Translations under genes and position numbers: made by a program
Notes under the pieces: model-generated
What the model was told of the DNA's origin: nothing
The model's database searches: none
The model's input: the letters and a program-made list of their open reading frames with translations, nothing else
Shown: in pieces, positions 3,656 to 57,370 of the stretch
How positions within the stretch are numbered: position 1 is the stretch's first letter
Layout of the letters: every line of letters begins with the position of its first letter
Source: Azolla caroliniana
Lineage: Eukaryota > Plantae > Polypodiophyta
Assembly: GCA_043228905.1 (NCBI GenBank)
Contig: JBHGNT010000001.1
Location: forward strand, 21,204,001 to 21,268,000
Direction of reading: 5' to 3'
Length of the DNA: 64,000 nucleotides

Positions 3656-4037
3656 AACTTAGAAAGACTTAGAAACTGTGCATCAGAGACGAATCCACAA
3701 CCGACCCTTGCTATTCTTCGTCCAAAATGTCCAGAATGCTTCGACCATTATGTCACCACTTTGTATTCTAGCATTTAGTATGAGTCATAGAATCATATTC
3801 TATGACACATAACTTATGAGCTTTCACATTCCCCATGCTCCATGAGTCTTGTAGTTAATGAAGAGAGAGGGTAACTACATAAAGCACCCTCCTCCCACCT
3901 TGTATAATGTTGATTCTTTCTCCTTTGTTAATATACTTAACCTTGCGTATACTCTGTGTCTCTCTCTCTCTATCTCATTCACACACACAGTTCACACCTA
4001 TTCCGCTTCACAAGGATTTATCTCTTGATTCTTTACA

Positions 4038-4049
4038 TGGTATCAGAGC
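4038..4049 (+). promoter_or_regulatory. Primer binding site (tRNA-iMet)
   Basis: TGGTATCAGAGC immediately after the LTR end TACA. Confidence 0.9.
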
Positions 4050-15090: not shown

Positions 15091-15092
15091 AT

Positions 15093-15123
<31 letters not shown>

Positions 15124-15128
15124 CGTGT
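15091..15128. repeat. (GT)n(GC)n microsatellite upstream of the DnaJ gene
   Basis: Directly visible alternating purine-pyrimidine tract. Confidence 0.9.
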
Positions 15129-15316
15129 AGAAGCAGCTGAGTGGAAAAAGGGAGAGGAGCTTGCCCCCCCTCCCCCTTTTGTTTCTTCTCTCCCATGTTT
15201 TGATGGCGTCAATGGAAACGTCGAGGTCCCATACTTGTTCTTGTTGTTGATGGAGATGAAGACGGAAATCTCTTCTGTTTCTCCTCTGCACAACATCATC
15301 ATCATCATCATCATCC

Positions 15317-31758: not shown

Positions 31759-32357
31759 TAGCAATGGGCCCGGTTTTGGCTCAAATCGAACCGAACCGTT
31801 AAGCCATGGTTTCAAGGTTTATAAGTTTCCAAAAAATTAAATGGTTTAGAGTTTTAATTATTAATAAACGGTTCGGTTTTAGTTTGGTTTGGTTATGAAA
31901 CAAGGGTTTATCGGTTTAAGTAGTTTGGTTTAAAGGTTTTTGGGTTAACCTTTTTTATCCCTTAAATGTTTATGTAATTTAATGGTTTAATTAATGTTTT
32001 TTATTCATTTAATTCACTTAGCTTAAATGTTTATTTAATCTAATGGCTTAATTAATGCTTATTTATTTATTTAATTACTTTAACATAGATGCTTATTCAG
32101 TTTAGTTTATTTTTATTTATTTAATTTTTTAATTAGTTTGGCTTAAATGTGGTTAGGTTTAAACCTTTTATTAAATGGCTCGGTTTGGTTTTAACTTTTC
32201 CCTAAACGGTTTTGGTTTACCTTTTCTTATATGGTTTGGTTTAATGGCTTGAAAGTTCATAAATGGCTCGGTTTGGTTTTTGTTTTATATAAATGGTTTG
32301 GTTCAGTTCGGTTTGGTTTCAAGGCAAAGAAATCGAACCGAACCGGGCCCATCGCTA
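31759..32357. mobile_element. Non-autonomous hAT-type MITE
   Basis: TIR TAGCAATGGGCCCGGTT/AACCGGGCCCATCGCTA; perfect 8-bp TSD CTAGCCAT (31751-31758, 32358-32365). Confidence 0.92.
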
Positions 32358-32764
32358 CTAGCCATGATCTTTGAGGATCAAACCACTTTAATGCACACAT
32401 CAATTTCTCTACCCAAAACATCCAGTGAATGCTCACTACAACAAGTTCAATCTATGGGTGAAAGCATGCGAGTGAAAACAATTAGCTATGTCCTTGACAT
32501 AGCTAATTAGCTATGCAAAAAGCTAGCAGTGATAAATAGCCATTTTTGCACCATGAATGAACACATTAGAATGTTTTAATTATAAAAATGAGCACCATAA
32601 ATGTGCAACATAAACGTGTAACATAAATGGATATGTGCACCATAAATGTGTACCATAAATTATATACCAAATTCCTAGGTCCATTATGCATGATCCATTG
32701 CCACATCTCGTTGGCCATTACTTTGTGACTATTTCAGTCTTAGATTACTGCCATTGTTCCTAAA

Positions 32765-33320
32765 CCCTATTGAGTCCACTATGACATTGCCGTTATTCTA
32801 CACTAAGTTGCCGCCACGTCCAATCATCATTTGCCACTATTCGATCCGACGGAGTTCACTCCTCCATTGTCACCATTCTACACTGAGTTGATGCCACTGT
32901 TCGGTCTAAGCATCATTTGCCACTGTTCGCTCCTGTTGAATTCACTCCTCCATTGCCGCTATTTTACACTTAGTTGCCGCTACTGTTCGGTTGTGGATTG
33001 CTGCCACTCTCTGATCCAACGAAGTTCACTCTTCCTCCACTACCGCCATTCTACACTCAGTTGCCGCCACTGTGCATTCCAAGCATCATCTGCCACAGTT
33101 TGATCTAATGTAGTTCACTCTTCCATTGCCACCATTCTACACTCAATTGCCTCCACTGTTCGGTCCAAGCATCATTGTCACTGTTCGCTCCTATTGAGTT
33201 CACTCTTCTAGTCAGTTGCCACCACTATTTGGTCCAAGCATCATCTACCACTGTTCGCTCCTATTGAGTTCACTCCTGCATTGCCACCATTCAACACTCA
33301 GTTGCTGCCACAGTTCAGTC
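32765..33320. repeat. Degenerate ~85-bp tandem repeat, about 6-7 copies
   Basis: Recurring GAGTTCACTCCTCCATTGCCACCATTCTACACTCAGTTGCCGCCACTGTTCGGTCCAAGCATCAT. Confidence 0.85.
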
Positions 33321-33569
33321 CTGGATTGCATAACTGTTCTATTTGTTGATTACCTTGTGTATTGTTGTGTATAATCTTGTGTATTGCGGAATAATTTTGT
33401 GTATTGTTGTTGCTCATAGTCATCTTAGCTCGTTCCCAACGGTGGTTCAGTAGCTTTCAGTCTGTTGCAACAAACATAAACTTACCAATGGTGGGATCGC
33501 TCCTGTGAATAACCGGTTTGCATGCGGTTTAGTAACTAGCTACGTATCTTTTTTTGTGGAAATTTACTA

Positions 33570-36500
33570 ATGAGTATGTCAAGCCAAATGGAAGGGGATG
33601 GAGGGTGCTTACCAATACCCCTCATGGATCATCAGGATAGAGATGACGCTATCAGGACACAATAAGCGATATGAAAGTATTGGGCAGAAAAAAAGGAAAC
33701 ATCGTCAATTGTTGAGGGATACAAAAGTCACATTCACTAAAGGTAAGGATAGCATTGGTTGCGATATAGTTCTGAATACCACCGAGAATGGAAGTAAGGA
33801 GACTACTATCATAGAGAGAAAGGTTGTAGACTATTTCAATGTTCAGACGAAGCACATCAGCCTTGAATACAAGAAGGTAGTACTTTATGGAATATTAAAT
33901 GATCCATCGATAAAGGAGTTAGTTGATTTTGATGGTCTTAATGCAAACATAACATATGTACTAGTAAATAATCTCCGTAATAGTTTCGTATCCATGAACA
34001 GGTCAGACGATGATCTTGTCTTAAAAAGGTCTAGTATAATGATGTTACTTAATAGTGATGTTGATGATCTTAACATAAGTGTGCAATCTAAGGTAATTGG
34101 TGTTAGTAGAAAAAGTGTGTACAATACAATGAACAAGATAATTTCAAGTGGTGAAGGAACTAGTCTGCTATAGCTAACAACAAGATGTAAGCCAATGACA
34201 CACATAATATCAGAAATCAACGTTATAATCACCATATTTTGGACTAATGAGAGTAGGGTTTCACCCAATAAGAAGGATTTATGCAGGAAACGTGTTGGAA
34301 GGAGTCAATACCAGGAGCATCCCATTCATCTTCTTGATGTACCTCAAGTATTTACATTTATCTCTACTTTTGTTTTGATTTTTAAACTTACTTAGCTAAT
34401 TAGCTACCTCAGAATATGATCATAGCTGACTAGCTATTGGTAATAGCTAAATAGCGATATCAGCTAATTAGCTACCGCCATAGCTAATTAGGTATCTCAG
34501 AATATGAGCATAGCTAACTAGCTACTCATAATAGCAAAATAACTATTGCCAATACTAAACTTAGTTATTATCAGCTAATTTGCTACCACAATAGCTAATT
34601 AGGTACCTTAGAAGATGACCATACCTAACTAGCTAGTTACCAGTAGCTAGTTAGTTAATAATAGCTAACTAGCTACCACATTAGCTAATTAGGTACCTTA
34701 GAAGATGACCATACCTAACTAGCTAGTTACCAGTAGCTAGTTAGTTAATAATAGCTAACTAGCTACCACATTAGCTAATTAGCTACTCAGAATAGCTAGT
34801 TAGCCATGTCAAGAGCTAATTAGCTATTAAGGTAGCTAATTAGCTATTGGCAATAGATAGTTAGCTATGTGAGGAGCTAATTAGCTACTATCAATAGCTA
34901 ACTAGCTACTCTAAATAGCTAATTAGCTACTCGCAATAGCTAGTTAGCTATGTCAAGAGCTAATTAGCTATTAAGGTAGCTAATTTGCAACTCTTAATAG
35001 CTAATTAGCTACTCGCAACAACTAGTTACCTATGTCAAGAGCTAATTAGCAGCTATTGTCAATAGCTAATTAGTTAATTAGCTACTCACAACAACTAGTT
35101 AGCTATGTGAAGAGCTAATTAGCTACTCGCATTAGCTAGTTAGCTATGTCAAGAGCTAATTAGCTATTAAGGTAGCTAATTAGCTACTCGCAACAACTAG
35201 TTACCTATGTCAAGAGCTAATTAGCAGCTATTGTCAATAACTAATTAGTTAATTAGCTACTCACAACAACTAGTTAGCTATGTGAAGAGCTAATTAGCTA
35301 CTCGCATTAGCTAGTTAGCTATGTCGAGAGCTAATTAGCTATTAAGGTAGCTAATTAGCAATTTTCAATAACTAATTAGCTACTCGCAATAGCTAGTTAG
35401 CTATGTCAAGAGCTAATTAGCTATTAAGGTAGCTAATTAGCAACTATCAATAGCTAATTAGCTACTCTTAATAGCTAATTAGCTACTATGAGTAGCTAAT
35501 TAGCTATGGCAAGAGCTAATTAGCTATTAAGGTAGCTAATTACCTACTCTTAATAGCTAAGTAGCTACTCGCAACAACTAGTTAGCTATGTCAAGAGCTA
35601 ATAAGCTATTAAGGTAGCTAGTTAGCTACTCTTAATAGTTAATTAACTACTTGCAATAGCTAGTTGGCTATGTCAAGAGCTAATTAGCTATGTCAATAGC
35701 TAGTTAGTTACTCTTAATAGCTAATTAGCTACTATGAGAGTATGATCATAGCTAATCAGCTACCACACTATATCTAACTAGCTACATCAGGGCACATTTT
35801 TGCTACTCACTGGACTCCCTTTTTATTACGCCGGTTGATTTATTTATTAGGTTCAAGCGAATGCATCCAAATATCAAAGTTCAACTACGAACATTTAAGT
35901 CTCTTAAGCCACACTTTGTGAGATGCTTAAAGGATCAATACACATGCTGTTGCATTTACCATGTACACATGGGTTTTCTCAAGGACTCCGTTAATCTACT
36001 ACGTCACTATAGCTCCTCCCTAGAGGATGTAATCTACACTTGTGAGTGCCCTATTTGTCAATCTAGCTTGCAAGAGCATTGTAAATCATCATAGCATGTT
36101 ATCTCTTCCATGAGTGGTCTTTTAGATTCAGTATTGTGTCCGAGAGAATTTGAGGCTATCTTCCACAGTCATAAATGTGTCATGGGTTTATGTCAAGATT
36201 GTGGCCCCTAGTAGGTTTAGGTGGTGTCCAAAACAGTGGAGTAGTGAAATTTTAACCTCTGTCAAGTTATTTGAGTCTGTGGACACCAATTTTGGAATGA
36301 ATGGTGTGTAAAAGAAAGGATCTAGTTAGGAAGTCTCATAAACCAAGGGATTTAGCGTCTCTATTTGTAGTATCTCTAGGAAAGTTCATTAAACACAACT
36401 TCATTTATTTATGGCAGGCCCATCAGTTTAAGATTTGCATATCTGATTTTCCAAATGATGTAGTAGTCTCAATAGTAGATTTTGCAGAGAATTATACTTT

Positions 36501-37655
36501 CAACCATTAGAATGAAATTCAATCCATGCATTGGTGTTCAGTGCAAGTAACCATTTTTGTGCACATAACATATTTTCGAGTTTCAGGTGATGTTAAGAAA
36601 GTAATTCATTTTTTTATTTCTGATGATAAGAAGCATGATACCTTGTTTGTCCAACATTGTTTTAAGTTACATTGGCAATGGTTATTGAGTCAATGTTTGG
36701 AGCTTACTCAACATTGGGTCTGGTTTGACGGAGTTGCGCCACAATTCAAGGCTAGACATCCATTTTATTTTGTTGGCAGGTATCCTTCTGTAATAGGTTT
36801 GGAGATGAGATGGAATTTTTTTTGGGTCTAGCCATGGTAAAGGTGAACATGATGGAGCAGGTGCAGTTATAAAGCGGGCACTTACCCATGAACAACTAAA
36901 GGCAGATGGTGTGCATATGAATTGTGCAGCACATGTAGTCAAATGTTTAAGAGCTAATATGTCAACGAGTGCAACTGGTGTTTATTCCTCACAGGTTTGA
37001 GATATCAAACGCAAATTTTGGGAAGTGAAGATAGATGAAGTAAATAGGGAGAAGACCTGGGAGTGCCAAGGAATTCCCGAATTGCGATCTCTCCATACTG
37101 TTCGGGGTTATTCTAGGTTAGAGAATTAACTTGTTTTTGCTTCCATTGTGTGCAAGGAAATTGGAGGTATTGTTTAAACAAAGCATATATTCGGAATTCG
37201 AGTACCATACATTGAAGGATAAGGACCGAGCGGATGGAGAAACACAAAACAATGTTGACTTCACATATCAGGGCTATGGAGATACTCTGAATGATGTCAT
37301 AAATGTTGGAGAAAATTTCGCTGTAAATGTAGAAGAAGACAATTTAGAGGGTGTTGATTTCTATATATTGAAGTGCAAGGTTTGCAAACAATGTGCAACG
37401 CAGAATATTGTAGATTCTTGGGGAAATTTTGTATCTGTAGGGACATTCTACATCGAAGGTATTTTTTATGCATGACTAGATGATTACGATTATGTGTATA
37501 GGCTTTTAGAAGACAAACCAGTAGTGTACATGTACTCTCATTTGGTCAGGTGTATCAATGTCCCGATGTCGCAATATAATAGCTGCTCAAGTTTATACAC
37601 AGTTAGTGCTAATGTGTATGAATGTATTTACAATAGTATGCCAAGGAATTTGTAG
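33570..37655 (+). pseudogene. DDE transposase pseudogene, Sola2-like, with a ~1.5-kb intron (about 34349-35833)
   Basis: FWTNESRVSPNKKD; FKSLKPHFV...TCCCIYH; DFAENY; EIQSMHW...QVT; SDDKKHD; WFDGVAPQFK; WNFF...HGKGEHDGAGAVIKR; several stops and frameshifts. Superfamily assigned from recalled motifs only. Confidence 0.75.
34390..35790. repeat. Intronic array of the palindrome TAGCTAATTAGCTA and variants
   Basis: Dozens of copies; includes a 90-bp exact duplication (34592-34771) and larger higher-order repeats. Confidence 0.95.
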
Positions 37656-40249
37656 CTACAAGGAGGTCATACTAGTTTTCTTGTAAAATGAACAAAGTAG
37701 TTGTATTGCAAAAAAATAGTTTAATAAAATCATTTGGGAGACTGTCTTCTTTCTAATATAGAGTTTTCTTTCTATTCTTGTTTGTTAATAAAATCATTTG
37801 GGAGTCTTCTTTTTGATATTTTATGTTCTTCTTTCTTAATAAAATCATGTATGTTTAATAAAAAACAGTTTAATAAAATTGTGTATCTTTTTTATATACA
37901 ATCTTCTTTGTGTTCTTCTATCTGAAAGAAAAGTTTAATAAAATCGTTTGGGGGTCTTCTTTCTGTTCTTGTTTCTTAATAAAATCAACTCTGTTAAATG
38001 TGTAGTGATTGTCAGTTTTACTTATTGCAACTTTCGGTTTTAGTTTGTTCAATGTGCATAATGACGATTATACCGTCTATACTACATTTTTACTCTCAAG
38101 TGAACCATGTACAAGTTCAAACAACTTGTCATTCTAATAACAACCAACAGGATTAAATCAGAAATCAATTACCTATTTTAAAATTACACAGTAGATAATT
38201 TACTCAAAACAAGCGATTTAATTCTTCATTGATTCATCTGTCATCGAATTACATATTTATAATACACCATTGGCAATGTCTACAAAGCGCCTATAAATAG
38301 CTAAGCTCTTGTTGGTCAGTGGAACTTCTCTACATATGTGATCTGCATACCGAGCTCGGTATGGTGTCCACAACCATGCAGTTAGTTGACAACTCAATAT
38401 TTTCACCAAGTAGTTATCAAGCATTTCGTTAGGTACAATGAGACAACATCTGTGAAGGTTCTAGTAATGCCATAAATGTTTTGTATCCACAATCAACGTA
38501 TTGTCGATATTATATTCGGGCCAAGCATGCCAAAAATCAGAAAGTCTTTTGAATCTTGCAACATCCTGCTGCTCACATCTTTCTCGCGTCCACTGACCCT
38601 TGAAGTGTTGTCACCGCTTTGGGAAGAATCTTTCTACACACTTCCACACATCTGAACGTGGTTTTTCACTCCAAATAAACAAATCAAAGTATTGCACAAC
38701 CCACTCTAGAAATTGATTCACGTCCCTCCTTGGTGTCATATATCGCACACTCATCAGGACTTTATCACGCTCCAAGATCAAGGCTCTTCTTTCATCTTCT
38801 AATGGTTTACGTTTCCATTCCTACAACTGAGCCTCTGTTACACCAAGTATTGGTAGCACACGATCAATTTCCATCAACTCAGGTTCTGTTGACACAATTG
38901 GTGTCCTTTTCCTCTTCAAACCCCTAGTCGATTGTGTCTTTGGGTCTGACTTCACTTTGTTTTGCTCTTGTGTAGTCATTGGGCTTGGCTTCACATTGTT
39001 TTGCTCTTGTATAGTCGACTATGTCATCGGTCCTGGCATTACCTCTGTGCATGTAGATACTTCTCTGGTCGATATCGGCCCACTGGTATCACATGCTACA
39101 TCTACTTGCAAAATCAGATCATTTGTGCAACATGCTTGATCTACTTGCGTGACCAGATCATTTTGTTGGTCGTTTGCGGCCAAGTATGTAATGAGGAAGG
39201 GGCGAGCCGGTTTCCGGATATATAATAATATTATTAGTTATAGGAACAAACAGATCCGGAATAGGTATGCCGATCCACGAAACAGACCGAATTCATAGCT
39301 GGTTGCCGGTTAGGCACCGTTTTGTAACATAGAACCGGATGCCTATAAAAGGATCTGGGTATTGATGTATTAGACGAAGGAATATTGATATAAGAAAGTT
39401 TTGTTATTGTGTCTTGTGGATCTTTATGTTCTTATTCCGTTCTGCGCTCAATGTATGGATCTTACGTGTGGAGTTGATGTGTGCTGTGAATCTGGATACC
39501 GAACCAGAACCTAACCAGTTATGGTTGTTAGTGCTAAATCCCTTATAGTAACCACCCTTTGGTGAAGTGTTCGGAAGGGACACCATGTGTTAGAGGCAAG
39601 TCTGGCCCAGGAATAACACATATTTTGGCGACCACGGTTACTACAGCAAGCAGCGAACAACGGGGGGATGGACAACTAGGCCTACAAACGACCCAGTTGC
39701 CGAACGAGCAAGAAGACTAGCCGAGAGATTGCGGAGGCGAGAGGCTTACCAGCAGGCGGCTGAGGAGATCCAATCGGATCGATCTTTTTCCAACGTGATT
39801 CGGCGGGTCGCAGAGGAGTCACTCCGGTTACAACACAATCCATACCTAGACGAAGGAAGCAGTTTGAGCATTTTGTGGAACGCAAAATCCATCTTGCAGA
39901 CCCTCACGGTGGGTGATGTGTGATTCTTCACACACTATGTAAAAAAAAATGAAATAATTATTTTAGATTCGATTAGTGGCTTGATATGAAAAGATAGATG
40001 TCTTCAAGAGCTTCATAACACATTTTACTACACATGAAACAGATAAATAAGTATTAAGTTATGTGAATATGAAGTTTGAGAGGATAAGAAAAATAGAATT
40101 ATGAAATATCCCACATAGATAGGAAACTTTAGGATCCATCTATATAAGTAGATTGAGAACTAGAAGTTTTCATCTATGTGTTGAGAGCACAAAAGGAATG
40201 GTTGGACTTGGACCAATTTGTCTACATGGACAAATGTGGCTTAGGAAAC

Positions 40250-41025
40250 CGGAAACTAAAAACCGGATGCAGCTGGCAACTGGCAATCGGAAACCGGGAA
40301 CTAGATGGAGCCGACAACCGAAAACCGGAAACTGGAGACCGGACGGAGCTAGCGACGAAGTTGGGACCCAGAATCGGATGACGATGGAACCGGCGACCAA
40401 TTGGACAGAGCCGACAACCGGCAATTGGATAGAACCGGAAACTGGACAATGACGGACTGGAAACCGGACGGATCTGACGACGAAGTTGAGAACCGGAACT
40501 GGACGATGATGGAACCGGCGATCAGCAACCAGCAACCGGCAACCAATCGAACGGAGCTGACAACCAACAATCAGACAGAGCCGATAATTGGCAACCGAAC
40601 AGCGATGGACTAGAAACCGGACAGAGCCGGCAACAAAGTTGGGAACCGAAACCAGATGACGATGGAACTGGCAACCAGTGACCAATCGGACAGAGTCGGC
40701 AACCGGCAATCGGACGGAGCTGGAAATTGACAACCGGACAGAACCGGCAACCGGACGCGGACCAAACAGATTGGATGGGCGACGGTCGAGATGGATGGAT
40801 GATAGGATCATGTGGCGAATTAAAGTAAAGAAAAGAAAAGAAAAGAAAAGAAAAGCAAAGGCGAAGCAACTAAAAAAGGAGGCCATGCAACTAAAAATAA
40901 AGGCCAAGCAACTAAAAATGGAGGCCATGCAACTAAAAGTAAAGGCGAAGCAACTAAAAAAGGAGGCCATACAACTAAAAATAAAGGCCGAGCAACTAAA
41001 AATGGAGGCCATGCAACTAAAAGGG
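40250..41025. repeat. Compound tandem repeats in the LTR: AACCGG-rich units, (AAAAG)n, 42-bp unit x4
   Basis: Directly visible; 42-bp unit AAGGCGAAGCAACTAAAAAAGGAGGCCATGCAACTAAAAATA. Confidence 0.9.
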
Positions 41026-43256
41026 AACGCATGCAAAGGAACATGGGAGATGATGATCAAGAAGGAACTCGGTATATGTACCACTCTTTTTTCTCTAGCT
41101 TCTTGTTCTTCTTTTTTGGGCCCATTCTCTTCTGCTCTCTCCCATTCCTAGGGGAGAAAAACTCTAAGCTTAATTATCTTAGAGAAGAAAATCCTAATTT
41201 TCCTATGAAATCCATATCTCCATTTCTTTTAATCTATTATTCTATTAATCTCCGTATGCTTAAACTTTTGTAATCCCAATCTTGGGATAGATTGTAATCT
41301 TTCTTCCCCTTTGTTAATGAAATTTGTTAATCTTTCTCATTTCCACTAATTCTTTAATATAAACATACGAATGTGATATGCTTTGGTCAAAGGCCCCGGG
41401 GTCCTGCCTCAAGTTCATGTATCCTTGTCGTATTTTCGTGACAACATTGGTGAACCCAACGTGAAATGAGGTGGCAGGAGGATATCAAGTGCGACGATAG
41501 CTTCGATAAGCGGAACTCAAGGAGAGGAATTAACGAAAGGCATAGTGTCCGTTGTGGAATACATGCTGAGGGCGAGAGATCGAGAGGCTTTAATCGACAA
41601 AGCTATTGATCGAACGGTGGAGATATCTGGACGATTTGGTGGAAAGAATATCACAGATTTCCTTGCTACCTATTGGAACGAGATGCAATAGAGGGATTTC
41701 CATGATTTGAAACAAATTTCTAGTTTCAAGCGTGTGGTGGAACCAGGAATCCATGAGTGTGTCATAGAGATCCAAAACGAGCACGCAACTTGGGCGGAGT
41801 TCAAGAAGGCACTTCTTGCTGAATACATGCTTGAAGACGCATCACGAATGACTCGACATACACTAATGACTCGGCATACACTAATGATTTGGATCGAGAA
41901 GAAAGGAAAGAATCTGTGTGCATCGGGAGTATATGAGGAATTCGACCAGAAGTACAACCGATTTCCGAGTGCTGATCAACGAGTTCTCGATGGAGATAAA
42001 GTCCTGCTATTCCTGAAGGCGGTGGATACAAAAGACCGACGAGAATTGGGTGGTTTTTTGGAGGAAGAAACGCAACCAAATGTCTTGGTAGCGGACTGGG
42101 CGACGGTGAAGAAGGCTTGTAGCCGTCTTGATAAGCGTCGACAATGGCAAGAGGAAACTGATATGGAGAATCTACGAACATGGAGGAGGAAGGCACCTGT
42201 GATGGTCGAGCCTAACAAGCCGATCAACATTTTCGACAAGAAAGCGATGGAGGACTCTATAATCGAAGAGCTCTCCAAGAAATTTGAAGCGGTATCGCTG
42301 GCCAACTTAGGTCGACGTGAGCCCAAGGGAAAAGAAGCGTATAGATGTGTGTGGTGTGACAACTTCGAGCACCCACGAAGGGAATGCGCTGACTTGCAAG
42401 ACGCGATTCTCAAGAATGTTGTCTATTTGGATGGCAACATGATCCACTCGAGCGAGACCCAGAAGCCACTACGAGTGAACTTCGGAAGAGGCAGGTTGAA
42501 AAAGATTGTAGAAGAGGAAGATGCAAGGCACGTGGAAGCTATGCACTATGCCGCATCGACCGGGATACGAGTTGGAAAAGAGAATCTAAAGATGATCAAG
42601 CCAGAAGCTGGGTTTTGGCCGACAGTCTTCGAGTGCGAGAAAAAAGGCAAAATCGATTTGGAGGATTTAAAACTTGCTGATCGGAATGTTCGACGAGTTA
42701 CCGGATGGTTAGATCCAGTTGATGATAACACAAGCTTTGCGGAGGTAGTGTGCAACAACTATGAAGCTCTTGTCGAAGAGAAGAGGAAAAGAACCGGTGA
42801 AGAAGATGGCACATCAAAGCGTCCCAACACGAGGAACTTAGGGAAAGAAGGGCAAGTCCAACCTATGCCACGAAAAGAGGTTGGAGAAACAAGCATGAAG
42901 CCCGGTGGATCGAGCCAACCTGCTCGGATGGAAGTCGAAGAATCAACGAAGAAAGGAAAAGAACGAGCGGCACCGACTTACAAGCTAAGGTCGGACATAG
43001 ACCAAACAACTGATTTGCGGAAGGTCCTTGAGGAGAAGGTTTTAGACAGTCATGTCGACCTTATTTTGAGAGAATTTCTTGGGATTGCGAAGAAGGAGTT
43101 CCATGATACTATCGTGGACCTTATTAAGCGGAAGCGGCAACAATCTGATGAAGAGGAGGTGAAAACAAGTGCCATAACCATGGCAAGATCGGAAGAGGAG
43201 GAAGAAGAAGTGGTGGCGGATAGTCATTATTATCGACCTCATTGGGCAAGAGCAAC

Positions 43257-46200
43257 TATCAGGAATAGTACTAAAGTAGAGATGGAATTAGTACTAAAGA
43301 AGAGCAGTACTATTAGTACTAAGAGGACGGGACTGCGTAAGACTCCCGAGAGAGAGAGAATGAGAGAAGAGAAAAGAGAGATAGCGAGGATGAGAGAGAG
43401 AGAGAGATGATGATAACAACCAATATATTATGTGAAGGATAAGTACAAAATGGCTAAGAGGCTTAAGACTGGCGTTGAACCAATTTGGTTCAACATAATG
43501 CCTAGTGCCTTCTTTTATAGTGTTCTCAGGAGTAATCCTAAAACTTCTAGAATGTTCCAGAGAAATCTGGAATATACATTAGTTTCTTATAATAAAGCAT
43601 AAATGAAAGTAATATCCTATGAATTACAATAGATGGTGTGATGGTTAAGAGCTCGACCCATATACCATAAGGTCATGGGTTCGAGTCTTGCCATATCATT
43701 ACACTATCCCCCCCTTAAGATGACGAGTGGAACGAGTCGACGTTGATTGAGGACCGGGTTTGTCGGGATACTGCCGGTGAAAATCAGCAAGAAGATCCTG
43801 AGCATTGACGACATACTCGACGGGCTCCCAAGTACGTTCGCTCGGACTATAGCCGAGCCAATCGACCAAATAGTAAAGTTTGTTGCGAACAAATTTGGAG
43901 TCGAGGATGGCAGCGACTTCATACTCTGGGCCGACATCAAACTCAAGCGGGGGCGGCGGTGGTGTAACATGATCGGGAATAGTGTTTGCTTTATAAGGTT
44001 CCAAAAGAGAACTATGGAAAATTGGATGTATCCGAAGATGCGGAGGAAGATCAAGGCGGAACGTGACATCATTAACCTTACCGGTAATACTGAAAGGACC
44101 GAGTCGTCGATAATCCAACTTGTCGCACGGTCGAGTAGTCTTAATGTGACAACGTAAGAGCCATACTTGATCTCCGATGGCAAAAGAGGAGGGAAGTCGA
44201 TGACGATTTGCGTAAGTCTTCTATGTCTGTTGAGCATGACGAAGATGAGTCGAGAGATCCGTGTGGATCTTGCGTAGTCTCTCCAAATGATCCTCGGCAC
44301 AAGGATTGGTAGGTCGCTCCGGGGTGTCGATCACCGACCAACGAGGATGAGAACCGGTATAAGCGTAGAATGGGGAGACTCGAATCGAGGAGTGAACAAC
44401 ATTATTATACGCAAACTCCGCAAAGTGGAGAATCTCGGCCCAATCGTCTTGTTGATAACTCAGGAAACACCGGAGATATTGCTCCAGCGTTTGGTTTGTT
44501 CGTTCTGCCTGCCCATCGGTCTGAGGATGGTAGCTGGAGGAGAGGTTGCAAGAGACCTTGAGCATCTTGAAGAGATGCTGCCAAAATTTAGAGACAAATT
44601 GCGGTCCTCGGTCACTGATGATACTGTCTGGGAGGCCATGATGCTGAAATACCTCACGCATGACAAGGGCGGCGGTTTCCTCGCTAGTGATGGCCTTAGT
44701 AAACAGCACAAAATGTGCTATCTTCGTATATCGATCGACGACGGTTAAGATAGCATCGAACCCCTTTGAGACCGGCAGATCTGTGATAAAATCAAGACAA
44801 ATAGACTACCACTGCTTACTTGGAATCGGTAAGGGTTCCAACAAGCCATATGGGTGGTGTTGTGGCATCTTTGCTCGGCAGCAAGCATCACAGGTCCGAA
44901 CGTAGTCGTCGACAAAACGTCGCATGTGGGGCCACCAAAAGGATCGTTGAATTAGATCCAACGTCTTAGTGCTACCGAAATGTCCCGCCATATGGGTGTC
45001 ATGACACCTTTGGACGATGTGAAGGCGATAGGAGCAATTGGGGACATATACAAGCTTTTTAAAGAACAAACCATCATGATATTTGAATTGTCGGTAGTCC
45101 ATACCTGGTTGCTGAGACTGGGAACAGGATGCCCGAGAGGTATCAATGTGCGCCAGAATGTCTTGAGCAAAAAAATTTATCTTCAAACTTGTACGTATGG
45201 TGTCTATAATCTGGGAATCCATTGGGGTGTGAAAAATCCGCGTTGTGTGCAATCGTGTTGGTCCCAAGATTACTTGCTTTTGATTATCGAACGCTGGATC
45301 ACCAGGGCGAGGTGCAAGATATAAATGTCGTGATAGTGCATCTTCTTTTCCTTGTTGCTTCCCCAGTCGATATGTGATTTTGAAGTCGAAATGCGTGAGG
45401 AATTGAGCCCACCAAGCTTGTCGTCGATTTAGCACCCGAGCGTTCTGGAAATAAGCAAGGTTTTTGTGATCACTAAAGACGATGACCTGATGTGGAGAGC
45501 CCTCTAAGAAATACCGCCATTGCACAAAGGAATCCACGATGGCTAGTAACTCCTTGTCATGTATTTCGTAGTTGATTTCCGCGGCATCGAATTTGCGCGA
45601 ATGGAAAGCCACAAGATATAACTCTTCTTTATCTCCTTGTTGAGAAAGGATGCTACCGAGGGCGAAATCCGATGCGTCGGCCTCCATGATGAATGGTTTC
45701 TTTGTATCCACATGAGCTAGAATAGGAGCTGATGTAAAGGCTTTCTTAAGATGCCGAAAAGCCATGTCCGCTTCATTGGACCAAAGAAATGCTTGTCCCT
45801 TCTTCATAAGTTGTATAAGAGGTAAAATAATCTTCGAGTAATCCGGTATAAACTTGCGATAGAAGTTAGCAAAAACTAGAAAACATTGTACATCTCGTAT
45901 CGACCGTGGAATTTGCCACTCTAGCACAGTTTGGACGTTAGCTGGATCCATGGAGATGCCCTTTGAGGAGATCCCCTATTAGCCGTTGGTTTTCTTGTTC
46001 CAAGGCAACAAATTTTTCTTTTAGGCACTGTAGCTCGGAGAAAACGGATTGATATTCTTGGGCGCTAATAGTAGCCATAGTATAGGGAAAAGGGTAGGAG
46101 GATGAGGGAGAATGACAAGTAGGCTGGAGGAGAAATTTGGTTCAAACTGTCAGGAATAGTACTAAAGCAAAGATGGAATTAGTACTAAAGAAGAGCAGTA

Positions 46201-46596
46201 CTATTAGTACTAAGAGGACGGGACTGCGTAAGACTCCCGAGAGAGAGATAAAGAGAGAAGAGAAAAGAGAGATAGCGAGGATGAGAGAGAGAGAGAGAGA
46301 TGATGATAACAACCAATATATTATGTGAAGGATAAGTACAAAATGGCTAAGAGGCTTAAGACTAGCGTTGAACCAATTTGGTTCAACATAATGCCTAGTG
46401 CCTTCCTTTATAGTGTTCTCAGGAGTAATCCTGAAACTTCTAGAATGTTCCAGAGAAATCTGGAATATACATTAGTTTCTTATAATAAAGCATAAATGAA
46501 AATAATATCCTATGAATTACAATAGATGGTGTGATGGTTAAGAGCTCGACCCATATACCATAAGGTCATGGGTTCGAGTCTTGCCATATCATGATA
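43257..46596 (-). mobile_element. Chromovirus (Tcn1/Tf1-like) gypsy lacking gag, PR and most of RT
   Basis: LTRs 46596-46148 and 43703-43257; TSD GCAAC/GCGAC; host frame HWARATMET restored on removal; RNase H (EADASDFALG), INT (HPQTDGQAER), GPF motif, chromodomain (YEVAAILD...YLVDWLGY...TWEP); PPT AAGGGGGGGGA. Confidence 0.95.
46432..46451. promoter_or_regulatory. Heat-shock element (4 alternating nGAAn units) in the chromovirus 5' LTR
   Basis: tGAAa cTTCt aGAAt gTTCc about 20 bp upstream of TATAAA (46412-46407, minus strand). Confidence 0.65.
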
Positions 46597-48277
46597 GCGA
46601 CAATGGAGACGTCGGTGAAGATCGGGGAGAAGAAAGGTCGAGATGAGGTCGAGTTCTACAAGAAAGGAAGATGGTCGATTAATACAAAGCACGGATGGAA
46701 GATTCGAGCGACAACGAAGGCTACGGAGGACTTGTACGAAGTTTGCCCCAACGTTAAAGTCACGATCGGGGATGTGGAGATTGGTCAACACTTCCTCGTG
46801 CAGGCCTCGGTTCACATCGTGTCATCCTAGGACAACTGTATATAACATCGTCTCGGATGGAGACCAAGGTGTTCAATAACGGAGCAGCCTTAGCACGTGT
46901 CAAGAGTCTTGATAGTAAAAGATCTGTTCAAATTCCTAATGGTGCAAGCTAATCACGAAAGGAACCGAGATAGCCTTGGAGGCGAATCCTCGGATTTTTA
47001 AAGCGGACTATTGAAGCATGGGACACAAATAGTCCGAGCAATCATAAGTCCCCACAAGGAAGCAGAGTGCGTGGATTGCAAGGAGAAGCAACATGCGTCA
47101 CACCTAGCGGCGCATGCAAACTAAGACTACTCAACAAGAAGGACAAATGTCAGATACAAGATTTCGAGAAGGTGCTGAAAGAAGAAAGCATAATCGAAGA
47201 AGAAGAACTCGTGTCTCATATTCTGGAGGAAGCTTCATTTAATGACACCATCGGCGAAATCGAGGAAGTCGTGGACTTGAGGTATCCTCACCATCAACAT
47301 GTGATTTCGGTTAACTCCGTCAACATATACACTATCATCAATGAATATCATCGAGGCATCTTGATGGAGGAAGCCGAAGTCAACACAAAATATAAAACTA
47401 TGGATAGGAAGATCAAGCCAGTTGCAGTACCGCTACCGGAAGATAGCTGGCAAAAGATGAAGGAAGTTGCAAAAGATCCAAGCTTAAGGAATCCAAATAC
47501 AATTGGTCACGTCTTCACTGAAGAGACGAAGGGAAAGCTACGAGTTGGAAGGGAGGATTTCCTCCTTCCTGAAGCGGAGTGAATGTTCCGCGGAATTCTT
47601 GAAATACATAGAAGGCTTTCACATTTTTCCCACAAGAAATCGGATGTGCTAATCCAAGGACGGTAGAACCGATGGTGATCTTCATAGTGCCGCATGTGCC
47701 TTGGAATTTGAAACCGATACCGGTTCCGAGAGCACACCTACCAAAGCTGATTGAGCTCTTAAAGGAGAAGGTGAATATGGGAATTTTGGAACCATCGAAT
47801 GCTCCTTATTCTAATAGGTTGTTCATGGTGCCGAAGAAGAATGGATCGTTGCGATTCATCCAAGATCTCCAACCTGCCAACAAGGTGACGATCCGAAATG
47901 CCGGAATTGGTCCAAGCGTGGATGAATTTGCCGAAGCCTTCGCAGGAAGATCGATCTATTCCATTGGTGATCTCTACTCGGGCTATGACCATTTTCAATT
48001 GGCTATCGATGGTAGAGACATAACGACAATGCGGACGCCGATCCGGTTGGTGCGGATGTGTACCTTACCTCAAGGTGCAACGAATTCGGTGGCTCATATG
48101 GTGAATGCCATGAACAAGGTCTTGAAGGATTGCATCCCAGGCATCACGATGCCATTCCTGGATGACATTCCGATAAAAGGATGTTCGGATGAGGAGAAGG
48201 ATGAATCGAAAGATAAGGATGGATGCAGAAAGTTCGTCATGGATCATATGAAAGATTGCGAGAAGGTGCTCCAATCT

Positions 48278-50340
48278 AAAGCAACCAAAGCATGGTTCAA
48301 CAGGCATGGACTGAAGGGATTCCTTTGAATTGCAGAAGCAGCTCCGCAGGAGGAACCGGAGAAGGTCGCTTTGCGAATCGACCTCGAGGAAATAACAGAG
48401 GAAACTGTGCGTGCCCTCATCGAACTACCAAAGGGAGGATTATACTCCATCGAGAGCCCTTCCACCGAGACCCTGACAGAATACTTCGGTGAGTACACCA
48501 TCGCCAGCAAGGCGTATAGAACATAGGGTGGCAAAGATGCCCTGTTTCGAGAGGTAGCACATGTTCTCCATGAATACGACTTCGTGCACCCCCACCCTCT
48601 GGCAATGCCTAAAAACAGAGCCGGATTGATCATCGCAACATACCAAGGAGTTAAAGTAGATTGGCCCGTGATCATCGCCGATTCATTACGAACGGCCATC
48701 TAATCGGTTGTGGATGGGAAGAAGGTCTGGACCGCTAAGTGACCATCGAGGGAGAAGCAGCGGAGCAGTAGGGGGAAGGAGCGGGTGCAACATTGGACAA
48801 CACCCCGGCAATTGTCTCAGTGGTGGTAGAACCCCGAATAGAGGTAGAACCGGAAATAAGGCTAGAAGCGGTGACCACGGGTCAACAGGAACCGGTTACA
48901 AAGATTCAGACCTCACTATGCCTTCAAGAACATCAACATGAGGAATGTTGTCCGGAGCAGACACCGGTGCCACTGACCCAAGGGCTCAGAATGGAGGCTG
49001 AACCAACACCGGTGCACGTACTGCCATTCGTTCTCCCAATACAACAAGGAATCTCCCAAAAATGGTTGAGATGGTTGGGGGAGCAGGTGTCGGGAATTGT
49101 GAACCGGTTGGAGCAAGAAGAAAGGATGCAAATGGATCGTTTCCTATCCACGACCGAAGAATTAGAAAAGGCCCGGACACGGATCCGGAGCTTAGAAGAA
49201 GAGTTGGAGAAGGCCAAAGAACAGGAGGTCGGTACGGCCCAAACAGGGCCAAATACAACCACAGAGCCGGTGGCACCAACTAATACACAAACAAGCAACG
49301 AACCGGGGGCTAGCACAACACCGATAACGAATAACGAGCATGAACAAGAAATAGCCACCTTAAAGGACGAGTTAGCGGCTTAGGAGGCCCTACGGGGCAA
49401 AGAGAGGGATTAGAAGAAATCAGTAGAGGAAGAGAAGTGAAGGATTGAAGAAACCCTCCGAAAAGCTCAAGCAAGCAACGACCGGCTGAAGGAGGAGAAA
49501 TAAAAACTGCTGCAAGAAAAAGACAAGCTCCGAAAGATGGCAGAAAGTGAAATTGAATGGTTGAAGGAGGAGCTCCGGAAACAGAAAGATAGGGAGGACC
49601 ACGCACGAAGGCAAATCAACCAAAAGTTAAAATAGAAAACAGATGATTTTGAGAAGCTGCATCAGGATCACAAACAACTTGATGCGGAGCATAGGAAGTT
49701 AATTGTAGAGTGTGACCGGAGGCAAGTGAAGATCAGAGAGCTCCGGGCTGGGGTAGCAAAGAAAGGGGATGCCTTGGTAGAGGAATGGACAAAGGTGGTC
49801 GAGTCGGCGAAGTTGCTAGAGGAGGCGTCAAGAGAAAGGACGGTGCTCACTCGGCAACATTAAGAGGCGGTTGAACAAGCAAAACTGGTTCTGGATAGGG
49901 TTTAGACGACCTATCAAACCCAATTACTGGACTATGGGGCGCAGGCCCAAGCAACCGCGACTCTGATAAAGAAGTTGAAGGAGGACGAGCAGGCTGCAGA
50001 GGACAAGTCCAAGTTGGGGGTCAACCAAATCCAGGCTATTGTGCTGGCATGGAAAGAACGAACGAAGAGGATGATCGACGAAAGCTCGGTAGAATGGTGG
50101 ACAAAGTGGACGCAACAAGCGTCCGAATTATAGGTCCTACGAGCGAACGTTGAGAACCGGAGAAAAGACGGCGACCACTTCTATAAGATGGATGTGGAAA
50201 GCATTGTCACCATCCGGGAAGAGTTGTCGGATGACTTTCTATCCTTGGCCGAAGAGCAATTGGCTATTGTTAGAAGGCTGGTGGAACGATTAGACGATGA
50301 CCAGCTTGGCACCCAACTCCAGTTCGAGGGATTCAAACGA
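48278..50340 (+). pseudogene. 3' extra ORF of the Athila/Selgy-like element (globular N-terminal part plus long coiled coil), many stops
   Basis: KVDWPVIIAD motif; E/K/L-rich heptads (ORF 48793-49383); lies directly before the 3' LTR. Confidence 0.6.
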
Positions 50341-52074
50341 GATCATTGACAAAAGGAGGCAGCACGGATGACAGCGTCGATCAACCTTAGTGATGAAGAA
50401 CAATCTCCGGATCAGCCACCAGTTGAAACCGAGGCCGAAGGAGCGCAGCCGAACAAAGACAGAATAGAGCAGTCGGACGAAGCCGGATTGGAACAACCAG
50501 TAGAAGCCAGATGGGAGCAGTCGGATGGAGTAGAAGAAGAGCCGGGACGGAAGGAACCGGAGAAGACGGAAATGCCGGAAATGGAAAGGACCACCAGGAG
50601 CAGCAACAACTGGAGCGGGAGCAGCAAAGTGAGGAACCCCTCAAACCCCTTGACCAGAGTATTTTAGACATACTTGATGAGGAGTAGTGGAGCTAACCCG
50701 TGGGTTCACCGTACAGGGTACTGTCCCACAAGCGTGCCATGTGTTGGCCGTTGGCGGCCAAGTATGTAATGAGGAAGGGGCAAGCCAGTTTCTGGATATA
50801 TAATAATATTATTAGTTATAGGAACGGACGGATCTAGAATAGGTATGCCGATCCGGATCCAGACCGATTCGTAGCCGGTTGCCGGTTAGGCACCATTTTG
50901 GAACACAGAACCGGATGCCTATAAAAGGATCCGGGTATCAATGTATTAGACGATGGAATATTAATATAAGAATTTTTTTTCATTGTATCTTGTGGATCTT
51001 TATGTTCCTATTCTGTTCTGCGCACAATGTATGGATCTTACTTGTGTAATTGATGTGTGTTGTGAATCTGGATACTGAACCGGAAGATAACCAGTTATGG
51101 TTGTTAGTGTTGAATCCCTTACCACAACCACCCTTTGGTGAACTGTTCCGAAGGGACACCTTGTGTTAGAGGCAAGCCCGGCCTAGGAGTAACACATTTG
51201 TGTCAGTTGCTACATTTACTTTCAAGATGGGGCCCTCTAAACACGTAGCAACATCAACAGTTTCCACACTGCCATCGGCCTTAGGAGCAATAGACTCAAA
51301 CCCTTTAGACTCTACACATCAGAAAACACCAACATATTCACACTCACAAAGTAGCTAACAGTCTCACTAAACAACATAATGAACATGAGTTCCATTGCAT
51401 AATGTGGATCAAGCAACAACCAATCTGAGGTTTTACTTGTCCAAATAGACCATAGGACATCTTCATAATTTTCTAGGAAAATAGCTAATAGTTATATCCC
51501 ACTAATCAGTAATTGGTAGTAATTAGCTCCAGTTTAAGAGCCCCTTCATCGAGTAACTGGTCTTGTCCCCGATCGTGGCCCCTTCTTCAGCCTTTTTCTA
51601 GCTGGTTGCCCATTTAGCCTTGCTTCTTTCACCCATTGCGCAAGTGTGTCCTCCTCCGACAACCTTTCCACCGAAAACCTTTCCATCGCCTCAGCAACGG
51701 CTTGCACGTCAACCGCATCTTGCACTAGATTTTCAAGTATAGTAGGATCTTGTGGGACATCATTAGTAGTTGGGCTTGGTGGGGTTGAATCAAGGTTTTG
51801 GGATTCGAAGAAATGTTGCATCATGTGTTCAAAAACAATGTTGTTATGAACCTCAAATTTACATGTTGTTTCCAATATTTCATGGCTTTTCACAACGTTG
51901 CCTAATTCAGTACAATCTTCCAAAAGAATAGGGTGGTGCTAATCTGAAGGAGATGTGATAGCAGGAGTCTTACTTTCAGCCACGTTGCTAGCTATCTCCT
52001 CATCGGTTGCCTCGTCATCGGCACCAGACACCTCATGCAACCTCCTTAATCCACGATATTGTAAAACAAAATCT

Positions 52075-52605
52075 TAGCTAATTAGTGACTTCTCTTCTGT
52101 TTTTCTATGACCTTAGCTGAATACTAAACATGATAGCTAATTAGCTACATGGTAGATATTAGCAGCCACTCTTGATATTGCTCGATATTGCTACATCCTA
52201 GCTAATTAGCTACGAATTAACTAAGTAAGCTAATTAGCTATTCTTCCTAACTATGGTAGTAGTTAATTAGCTATCACTCTTGATACTGCTTAGCTAATTA
52301 GCTCCTAGACTATAGATTGGCAGTAGCCAATTAGCCACATCTTAGCTAATTAGCTCCTAGACTATAGATTGGCAGTAGCTAATTAGCTACATCGTAGCTA
52401 ATTAGCTATTCTACTTTAGTATGGTAGTAGCTAAATGTCTATTCTTCTTAACTATGGCAATAGCTAATTAGCTATCACTCTTGATACTACTTAACTAATT
52501 AACTACATCTTAGCTAATTAGGTGCTAGACTATAGGTTGGTAGTAGCTAATTAGTTACATCTTAGCTGATTAGTTCTTCTTTTTAGTATGGTAGTGGCTA
52601 ATTAT
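52075..52605. repeat. Second TAGCTAATTAGCTA palindrome array
   Basis: Same motif as 34390-35790. Confidence 0.9.
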
Positions 52606-52968
52606 GTTAGATATAATCAATGATCAACCCAAAGTTGTAAATCTATCCCCATATGTGCTCTTAGAGTGCACATTTTGTGATAGCGCCCCAAATGAGGAGC
52701 GGCTAGTGTGCAACTCGACCATATGGGTCGATAAGGTGTTAATCTAGGAAGTCGTAGATGCATAGGACACAATGGATTTAGGAAAGAGAGAAATAGGTAA
52801 TAGGATTGGCGAATCAAGTAAACTAGAATACTTTGTGGGAAAGTTACAATGTGCTTAGTCTTGAAGTATGTGCCATTGACTTCAAGATAAGTACTATCTA
52901 GCACTAGCCTATATCTAGGGAGTTGGGCTGGAAAATCTCCACTACTATCAACTGACATGCACATTTAA

Positions 52969-54756
52969 TGTTACACTCAGACCAAACAGAGAATATAATC
53001 CACTCTCTTACACTGTGGTGTATTGATCATCAGTCCCCACTACTTTTGTAGTGAGTTGGTCTAGATCCCATCTAGGCTCTAAGGTGTGAGCACATGGGTG
53101 AACTACCATTGTGAGCTACTCTCATATGTAATAGAATTTTTTTTTTCATATATCCATCTCTGTGGTTGTAACTCTATATACCTATCTAATGGATTCTCAA
53201 TATTTCTAACATGGTATCAGAGCTAAGAGGTTGATCTAGATTAGGTATATACGGGTAGTTGTTGTCTAGTAGCACAAAGAGAGAGAGAGAGAGAGAGAGA
53301 GTATAAATGGCCTTGTCCACGAATGTTGCAGTTGCTCCACTGCGCATTCGTCCACCTCCATTGTCTGATGGAACGAACTACACTCTATGGAAGTTCAAAA
53401 TGTCTGCCATTTTGGACTCCTACGAGTTGTTGGAGATAATCATGGGACCCACAGGAGGAGACCCTGAGCCCATGGTGACCTTTGACCCTGCACACCCTAC
53501 CACATCAATCCCTCCAAATGTTGATCTACTTCAAGCCTAGAAGAGAAGGAATATTGATGCGTTGTGTACCATAGTCACTAATGTATATGACTTTGTACTA
53601 ACATTAGTGCAACATACAACTAGGCACATGAAGCTTGGAGCATATTGGCTAGCTAGTATGAAACCAAAAACTATACAAGGATACAAAACCTCAAAAATCA
53701 GCTTGTTGCAGAGAAGCTCGCTGATGGAGAGAAAGTAGAATCCTTCGTAAAAAGGATTAAGGATCTTCAAGATCAGCTGACAACTGTTGGAGTAGTTGTC
53801 TCTCAATAGTGTATGGCTCGTCGGTGCATTCGAGTACTTCCTTCCAAGTATGATGGCATTGTGACAACATTGATCACTCAGGTTCGACCCACTCCTTTAA
53901 AATTTGATGAACTAAGTGCAATGCTGCTTGAAGAGGAGCTTCAGCTGAAGACAAGAGAAGGAAGGGAAGATTCGACATTTGTCTCTATGACTAAGGATAA
54001 AGGGGCATCCAATTCAAACAATGTGAATAGGATACCAAAGAAGAAGAAGTTCAATGGATCGTGTTTCTACTGTGAAAGGAAGGGTCACACAATCAAGGAT
54101 TGTTGGAAGAAGATGGTGGATGAGAAGAATGGTTCTAGTAAGACTTCTTGGAGAGAGCCCGAGTCCGATGAGAAGAATGGTTCTAGTAAGACTTCTTGGA
54201 GAGAGCCCGAGTCCGCCAACAATGTCATAGATGAGCTTGAGTTATAGGTCGCAACTGAAGAAGTGTGTTCTTCAGTTGACACTCAATTTGTCGACGACTC
54301 TTGGATTCTCGATAGTGGAGCATCCCGACATATGACCAGTAATCGTGACTGGTACAACTCTTGGCTACCTCTACAAGAGCCCATCAATGTTGTGGTCAGG
54401 AACAATGCTCGATGTCCAGCCAAAGGAACTAGAACCGTCTCCCTCAAAGCAACAACCAGTGGGACAAAGCATCTCTCTCAAGTGTTGTACGTGCCAGATC
54501 TCAAGAAGAATCTATTGTCCATTTCTGCACTGACTGACAAGGGTCTTGATGTTCGATTCAAGAGGTCGGGTGTAGAAATAACAAATTCTGTTGGCAAGGT
54601 TCTAGGAATAGGGGTAAGTCGCAACAATCTCTATGAGCTAAGCGCGTTTACAATTTCTACTCACCACAACACAAGTACTAACACAAAGCAATGACATGAG
54701 AGATTTGGGCATCTCAATGTTGTTGTGTTGAAGGAGATGAAGAAGTCGAATATGGT
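52969..54756 (+). mobile_element. Copia 5' part: LTR (about 52969-53211), PBS, degenerate gag-PR and start of INT
   Basis: TGTTA...TAACA; TGGTATCAGAGC 53212-53223; DGTNYTLW; CFYCERKGHTIKDC; WILDSGASRHM; 48-bp in-frame duplication 54119-54214. Confidence 0.88.
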
Positions 54757-57331: not shown

Positions 57332-57370
57332 GCGTAATGAGAAGTTGTAGCCGTGCGTAAACCGCAAGGC

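Follow-up and report, generated by a model that had tools for sequence, protein, structure and literature searches.

A transposon of apparently Sola2 type carries, in the fern Azolla caroliniana, a second gene that faces the transposase and encodes a NIF (FCP1-homology) phosphatase domain in which glutamate takes the place of the first catalytic aspartate, so that the domain, to judge by its sequence, is likely non-catalytic. The element lies in a stretch of 64,000 nucleotides (GenBank assembly GCA_043228905.1, contig JBHGNT010000001.1, positions 21,204,001 to 21,268,000 of the forward strand), which is referred to below as the window. The copy of the element in the window is dead. In intact relatives, the NIF domain is predicted to be the last exon of a larger gene that comprises an N-terminal domain (N-domain), a coil, a RING-H2 finger and an exon designated D. 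The original prediction of a NIF gene inside the element stands as far as it went; what it missed were the RING-H2 finger, the N-terminal domain and arrays of a palindrome.

The frame in the window runs on the minus strand from 39237 to 38260, with the closing stop at 38259-38257, holds all the peptides noted earlier and is interrupted by four in-frame stops (39021, 38823, 38613 and 38463). With the stops read as X, it matches the Pfam NIF profile (PF03031) at E 7.6e-10 and 39.1 bits, the cut-off being 21.8, over profile positions 36-131, and the Pfam search of this frame returned no other family at E up to 10. A phmmer search with the single window domain gave 0 matches in the PDB at E up to 10, a 71-row profile being needed for a match. 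The arginine of the window motif ERD is private to this copy, since two intact relatives, L001 and L006, both read ELD. Bases 39164-39237 of the frame belong to the LTR of a gypsy retrotransposon and lie outside the NIF gene; the phase resumes past 51199, beyond the second copy of the 5-bp gypsy target duplication CATTT (39159-39163 and 51195-51199), and the join is matched by contiguous intact relatives. The broken transposase, located on the plus strand at 33624-37653 by tblastn with the L001 transposase, faces the NIF gene. Thus, the frame envisaged by the original prediction, NIF-like, with stops, converging on the transposase and crossing the gypsy target duplication, is borne out in each of these respects. 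Three other explanations of the frame were ruled out: a chance frame, by the Pfam score above the cut-off and the relatives 74-79% identical; a gypsy-borne gene, by contiguous relatives without that gypsy insertion; and a host gene beside the element, by the position of the NIF gene between the terminal inverted repeats (TIRs). The two gypsy LTRs are separated by a K2P distance of 0.14. The retrotransposon also contains a 572-codon frame opposite to pol (41692-43410, plus strand) with no Pfam match, and within it a 448-bp direct repeat has copies starting at 43254 and 46145.

Removal of the predicted transposase intron from L001 yields an open transposase of 855 aa with DFAEN at 456, ISDD at 502, WSDG at 537 and HGKG at 574. 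These motifs appear to follow the published Sola2 alignment (PMC3627910, supplement file 2), as judged by eye and without a profile score. The transposase of an intact relative contains a weak helix-turn-helix (HTH) match (HTH_29, E 6e-6, below the cut-off). The TIR at the transposase-side end has a single match in the window, with 0.05 expected by chance, and is common to both ends of L001 and to the starts of L006 and of a third intact relative, L007. Sola2 TIRs are known to begin with 5'-GRG, and Sola2 elements to be flanked by a 4-bp AT-rich target duplication. Both ends of L001 start with GGG, and its inverted repeats match in 23 of 25 bases; the flanks of L001, TGTA and ACAA, do not match, L001 being possibly a collapsed assembly, and the single-end flanks of other copies are AAAT, ATAT, CTAT and ATGA (the window shows one end only). 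The second TIR is absent from the window, the other end of the element being cut off by a copia retrotransposon at 52605. In the remaining part of the second gene, the exon D acceptor is mutated, and tblastn found no RING exon or N-domain exon in the window below E 0.5. The carriage by a Sola-type element that had been claimed earlier is upheld inasmuch as the NIF gene lies within a TIR-bounded unit of Sola2 type.

Several other features lie in and around the element. The copia (52605-64000) sits in a palindrome array; a second gypsy, akin to the first, seems in turn to have inserted into the copia (LTR-like match at 59041-59364). Upstream of the transposase are tandem repeats of ~85 bp (32749-33321), with related repeats at 15400-15900 of L001. 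Outside the element, a hAT-like MITE with the 8-bp duplication CTAGCCAT occupies 31759-32357, has a related copy at 21283-21764 and is represented by many polyA reads with different flanks. A host gene, likely DnaJ to judge by its Jiv90 domain, has its 3' exons at 27900-29450 (plus strand), their three GT-AG introns being confirmed by reads of a relative; and a perfect 301-bp tandem duplication (26653-27255, 100% identical) is possibly an assembly artefact.

Coordinates of the element and its insertions in the window (positions of the whole stretch)
Feature	Position	Strand	Remark
TIR, transposase-side end, begins GGGTGAAAGCATG	32456..32480	+	
Palindrome AGCTAATTAGCT, subterminal copy	32501..32512	.	
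Sola2-type transposase exon 1, broken	33624..34347	+	tblastn with L001 transposase
Predicted transposase intron with palindrome array	34348..35837	.	21 exact copies
Sola2-type transposase exon 2 (DFAEN, ISDD, DG, HGKG-x2-DG), stops and frameshifts	35838..37653	+	motifs compared with PMC3627910, supplement file 2
NIF/FCP1-homology domain, E for first Asp, 8-residue insertion, D-T motif IV	38257..38886	-	three stops
NTLIVDT	from 38502	-	window frame
FKRL	38553-38542	-	window frame
FIWS	38679-38668	-	window frame
Motif I, ERDKV	38772-38758	-	window frame
Low-complexity linker, same exon as NIF, basic KRKR stretch	38887..39163	-	one stop
Gypsy retrotransposon inserted in last exon	39164..51194	.	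LTRs 39164-39621 and 50742-51194
5' part of last exon, from predicted acceptor	51200..51311	-	
Exon D, acidic, basic KKRLKK end	51547..52059	-	conserved internal GTAAG donor after 51974
Remnant of second gene's intron with palindrome array	52085..52604	.	8 exact copies
Copia 5' LTR and primer site, inside second gene's intron	52605..53221	+	

When the window NIF sequence was used in a protein search, 5 of 70 candidates matched, at 74-79% identity. Their clusters have 6, 17, 4, 25 and 1 members, 53 altogether, of which 41 are listed; since all the listed ones but one come from ENA contigs that probably represent a small number of hosts, these proteins are not independent. The relatives that bear a name come from Ceratopteris richardii and two Adiantum species. 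In all three intact contigs that are long enough (L001, L006 and L007), the NIF gene faces the transposase. L001 contains the whole unit, at 6111-16401, some 10 kb bounded by 25-bp inverted repeats, and L006 and L007 form a subfamily, 71-85% identical, with the same start repeat after different flanks. A metagenome scan reduced 287 pattern matches to four loci, L002-L005, of which L002-L004 end within the NIF gene or too early after it for linkage to be read. In the degenerate L005, the NIF gene is followed not by a transposase but by the end of another element, which counts against linkage; this end, at position 1394, belongs to the second-gene side of a different member of the family, begins ~110 bp past the degenerate NIF gene and likely marks a nested insertion. 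The family is dispersed in many copies, as seen from the five clusters and the differing flanks. In a DNA run from a near relative (X1), the summed depth, which is not a copy number, reached ~1,200-10,000 for NIF and exon D, 2,000-4,900 for the coding part of transposase exon 1 and 4-9 for the host DnaJ gene, and 911 contigs of that run match the NIF stretch; such depths agree with a family of high copy number, both of its genes being common. A gene in single copy and unlinked to the transposase, the outcome that would have spoken against the original prediction, is not what was found.

Upstream of NIF in L001 and L006, there are an N-domain exon, a coil-like exon, a C3H2C3 RING exon and the acidic exon D. 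All the predicted GT-AG joins are open in the three loci L001, L006 and L007, and the sites are conserved between the subfamilies. Two forms are predicted for the two subfamilies: a short one of 564 and 579 aa, terminating in exon D, and a long one (773 and 750 aa) that leaves exon D through the internal GTAAG donor, present in 6 of the 6 copies checked and chosen because it is in phase, and ends in NIF. In L001, L006 and L007 alike, a stop closes exon D. The eight C3H2C3 ligands of the RING align in L001, L006 and the gene models P0109 and P0142, the first Cys being missing in P0078; four RING families score against this segment, with E 0.027-0.44, all below the Pfam cut-off. A profile search with NIF gave 124 matches, including P0078 from Adiantum nelumboides (752 aa), which has RING and NIF in the same order after an N-domain that is 37% identical (pairwise E 3e-25); P0109 and P0142 combine RING with NIF. 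Two of these three models are named as Adiantum, the Adiantum fusions being products of automated annotation. Also among the gene models, P0146 and P0154 join an HMG box, a Ulp1 protease and NIF; either NIF was paired here with a transposon-type gene a second time and independently, or the models may be annotation fusions. Searches for fused proteins, of 572-2000 aa with NIF (0 of 102 candidates) and longer ones with exon A (0 of 261), found none; both were insensitive, as they missed the existing P0078.

The window contains 30 copies of the palindrome AGCTAATTAGCT, every one of them within the 8.1 kb of the element. There are 43 copies in L006 and 26 in L001, none of the latter in exons. The palindrome fills both large introns with a spacing that differs between the arrays, and adjoins both ends. 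In the array of the dead copy (34390-35790), the top one-base variants of TAGCTA are TAGTTA (24) and TAACTA (11), a pattern that fits decay of methylated C; these two are not among the top variants in the L001 transposase intron. Intronic arrays of VANDAL elements are bound by VANC (PMC5735166), and a transposase alone can bind and activate its own copies (10.64898/2026.08.24.746577). Here, the transposase may be the palindrome binder, given its HTH and the palindrome beside both TIRs. Binding of DNA by the N-domain is unsupported because no fold was found for it: there was no match in Pfam or the Atlas and one PDB profile row at E 6, and Foldseek matched the structure model (pLDDT 52) to nothing in the PDB and viral libraries at E up to 0.001. 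The N-domain may resemble PMD/DUF1985; P0146 and P0154 served as proxies for these, and the comparison returned a probability of 0.2%.

The copies at 33 bp and ~45 bp inside the two TIRs speak for a possible role of the second gene in transposition, as a cofactor comparable to TnpA of CACTA elements, which would assemble the transposase, or turn it over, on the palindromes, with the NIF domain serving as an interaction surface as it does in Tim50. TnpA is required for transposition of Spm (10.64898/2026.08.24.746577), and the top Foldseek rows for the NIF model are those of Tim50, which in fungi is a NIF pseudophosphatase (PMC13216928). Most of the palindromes, however, are intronic (24 of 26 in L001) and located 2-3 kb from the ends, and the Sola2 families of PMC3627910, as far as they are described there, carry Fanzor instead, so that the NIF gene is not general to Sola2. 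We regard a cofactor role as unlikely.

Selection on the second gene was estimated for one subfamily pair, L001 versus L006, by the Nei-Gojobori method with bootstrap. For NIF, dN/dS is 0.37 (95% interval 0.24-0.56), and for its core 0.36, as compared to 1.07 and 1.13 in shifted-frame controls; the C-tail of NIF alone gives 0.61, with an interval that spans 1. The values are 0.30 for the RING exon, 0.19 for exon B, 0.16 for exon A, 0.54 for exon D, 0.27 for transposase exon 1 and 0.15 for transposase exon 2, the NIF value being higher than those of the transposase. Hence, in this pair, the NIF domain is under purifying selection, and its frame has stayed open and of equal length in two subfamilies at dS ~0.5. 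There is good support for the view that the element maintains the second gene as part of itself. The selection on exon D, together with its terminal stop, fits a form without NIF.

PolyA RNA was available from a relative whose DnaJ gene shows fixed differences (runs X6-X8, ~12-13% of each read), X7 being compared with NIF, and X8 with the host gene and the transposase end. In X6 and X8, the exon bins of DnaJ were covered 14-85x versus at most 1.3x for transposase exon 1. Seven polyA reads of NIF were found (1 in X6, 6 in X7), in sense orientation if judged against DnaJ in X6; no RING-NIF splice joint was among the polyA reads, which counts against a fusion. The NIF exon could be made into a product of its own, or ride along as a captured passenger on which selection is relaxed, with the short N-domain/coil/RING form doing the work. 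The terminal stop of exon D in all three loci, the NIF dN/dS of 0.37, as compared to 0.15 in transposase exon 2 and 0.16 in exon A, and the different replacements of the first Asp between lineages point in this direction. On the other side stand the open frame of unchanged length in both subfamilies, the glutamate conserved across proteins only ~39% identical and the joint occurrence of RING and NIF in the three other gene models, and we consider this reading quite improbable.

Among the 41 cluster members listed of 53, motif I of the NIF domain is E-x-D in 31 of the 31 proteins that cover the site (28 ELDKVL, 1 ELDKIL, 1 EFD and 1 EVD), and motif IV is D-T in 33 of 33. The full-length ELDK rows have S or T in motif II in 6 of 7 cases (F in one) and K in motif III in 7 of 7. 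Accordingly, the signature DxDx(T/V) with its Asp nucleophile is replaced by E-x-D throughout the covering relatives, and motif IV is D-T rather than DD or DN (in the profile alignments, UBLCP1 has DD and CTDNEP1 has DN). The insertion that follows motif I consists of 8 residues as compared to 28-34 in 18 of the 19 other rows of the same clade, and the structure model has no long strands in place of the three-stranded insertion. Intact copies retain E-x-D and D-T under purifying selection, in support of the altered motifs that the original prediction pointed out; a normal DxD, which would have contradicted its pseudo-enzyme part, did not occur in these proteins, and the NIF dN/dS lies below the shifted-frame values in an intact subfamily pair.

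In a midpoint-rooted tree of 67 rows (4 of 71, namely P0043, P0051, P0073 and P0081, were dropped for having less than 100 covered columns; motif and loop columns were kept), the ELDK rows and five rows from Ceratopteris form one clade (support 99/99). The five Ceratopteris rows have E at motif I where it is covered, D-T or D-S, and a loop of at most 8 residues; as sisters of the ELDK rows, they carry EVE and a deletion. This clade with E, DT and a short loop is nested in a 31-row clade (support 100/97), whose 19 other rows have Asp (15), Asn (2) or Glu (1) at the first position, the site being missing in one; the second Asp of motif I is absent from all 18 of these 19 rows that include motif I. 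The Glu among these first positions is that of P0110, and the two Asn are those of P0076 and P0085. One clade thus shows stepwise loss of catalytic residues, from DLNG/DD to ELDK/DT.

The structure model of the NIF domain has a pLDDT of 90.7 and represents a confident FCP/SCP fold; Foldseek ranks Tim50 first, and the Z scores of VIA-align are 16.9 for SCP1, 15.9 for Tim50, 15.7 for UBLCP1, 15.0 for CTDNEP1 and 14.1 for Fcp1, with rmsd 2.2-2.7 over 146-160 residues. Against solved structures, the 71-row NIF profile matches UBLCP1 best (E 2e-19), followed by CTDNEP1, SCP1-3, Tim50 and Fcp1. The NIF/HAD fold proposed at the outset is therefore supported by Pfam, the profile search, the structure model and the structural comparisons. 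The nearest sequence families of the domain are the DLNG group and UBLCP1, not FCP1 or SCP.

Asp-to-Glu replacement at the first position of motif I is expected to abolish activity. The first Asp is the phosphoryl acceptor, and Scp1 activity is abolished by Ala or Asn at this position, the D96N mutant of Scp1 retaining phosphopeptide binding; the insertion after motif I, according to the same description a peculiarity of Fcp1/Scp1, may help to recognize the substrate (PMC3215212). Since Glu replaces the catalytic Asp in every intact relative that covers the site, the NIF domain is likely to be enzymatically dead; taken together, the Scp1 mutants and the short insertion suggest that catalysis has likely been lost, that binding may remain and that specificity for the CTD is unlikely. 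The features kept despite the loss of the first Asp, namely the ExDxV pattern, S/T of motif II, K of motif III and an Asp in motif IV, would be accounted for if the domain were still an enzyme, though an atypical one, acting on a small substrate by means of Glu or the second Asp. Altered motifs do not always put an end to activity in phosphatases of the HAD and other classes, e.g. in human Tim50 (PMC13216928); with the Scp1 mutants and the EVE rows with a deletion among the Ceratopteris sisters arguing against it, such an enzyme seems very unlikely. The reader of phosphorylated Pol II CTD, modulating transcription of the element, that the original prediction suggested has the FCP/SCP fold, the retained phosphate-contact positions and the binding of a CTD phosphopeptide by dead Scp1 (PMC3215212) in its favor, but is very unlikely because the insertion that may serve in CTD recognition is cut to 8 residues, and the best profile match is UBLCP1, not SCP, with the nearest families likewise outside FCP1/SCP.

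We tentatively favor a reading that is plausible but could well be wrong: the element would encode its own RING ligase, in which the dead NIF domain grips a host target that is then ubiquitinated, keeping the element transcribable. In this scheme, the RING-H2 exon is predicted to be spliced to the NIF exon, resulting in one protein; the dead active site of NIF would bind a phosphorylated or acidic host target; the RING would ubiquitinate the target so gripped; recruitment to the palindrome arrays would take place through the N-domain or the transposase; and ubiquitination of the target would help to keep the element transcribable. A role in gripping rather than dephosphorylation is suggested because the catalytic residue is replaced and a RING is predicted to be spliced on. 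The KRKR stretch in the linker of the NIF exon is a candidate nuclear signal. What we infer is that catalysis has been lost, that the protein is nuclear and active as an E3, what kind of target it has and that it is recruited to the arrays; the ligase, target and anti-silencing steps derive from the domain set and the arrays. A more elaborate version, which we deem rather doubtful, would have the fern Sola2 element use its own ubiquitin ligase, with a dead phosphatase as phospho-receptor, docked on the arrays, to remove a silencing factor locally, alternative splicing toggling the receptor.

How does this element compare to known systems? Sola2 DNA transposons were reportedly described by Bao and colleagues in 2009. 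The Sola2 transposons of PMC3627910 have the same order of DFAENY, ISDD-x2-HD, SDG and HGKG-x2-DG, short TIRs and a known case of accessory capture (Fanzor), as far as described there; the element considered here differs in its plant host, the intron arrays and the facing N-domain/RING/NIF gene. In VANDAL/VANC (PMC5735166), there are likewise an accessory gene and a short motif tandemly amplified in introns of the element. That system belongs to another superfamily, and has no detected homology to ours, the N-domain having no Pfam match that would link it to VANC; the motif here is palindromic, the accessory gene has RING and NIF, sequence-specific binding and demethylation being features of VANC-type systems. 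Sola1-1_Ec32 (PMC12477816) is also a large Sola element with an accessory gene on the opposite strand that is proposed to act on the element's own sequence; it is a Sola1, however, and its accessory is a DNA-modifying ParB-methyltransferase, not a RING-pseudophosphatase. In the accessible parts of the literature, we found no published NIF or RING-NIF cargo in Sola elements, and Repbase and supplements could describe the family.

As to the domain, Tim50 and fungal NIF pseudophosphatases (PMC13216928) share the FCP1-homology fold without DxDx(T/V). Unlike the NIF gene of the element, Tim50 is a host protein of mitochondrial import and is not mobile. It is not known to carry a RING. UBLCP1, SCP1-3, CTDNEP1 and Fcp1 (PDB 3shq, 1t9z, 8ujl, 4xq0) have the same fold (Z 14-17) and motifs II and III, UBLCP1, the best profile match, sharing the short insertion as well; in contrast to the element's domain, they keep both Asp and are active, at 15-19% identity. 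MAIN/MAIL1-PP7L pairs a transposon-related domain with a phosphatase-like protein and counteracts Polycomb silencing (10.1101/2024.09.27.615353). Those are host genes, whereas here the gene belongs to an element. PP7L is regarded as inactive and has the PPP fold.

The plant transposon accessory proteins known so far are mostly DNA binders, such as VANC and TnpA. If the proposed reading is true, a RING and a NIF pseudophosphatase that selection preserves on a high-copy Sola2 element would add ubiquitin signalling to the means of anti-silencing, which would then proceed by targeted protein ubiquitination and not by DNA binding or DNA modification alone, with the palindrome as a candidate target motif. 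The findings also suggest that many fern gene models annotated with an "FCP1 homology domain" are transposon cargo and not host phosphatases.
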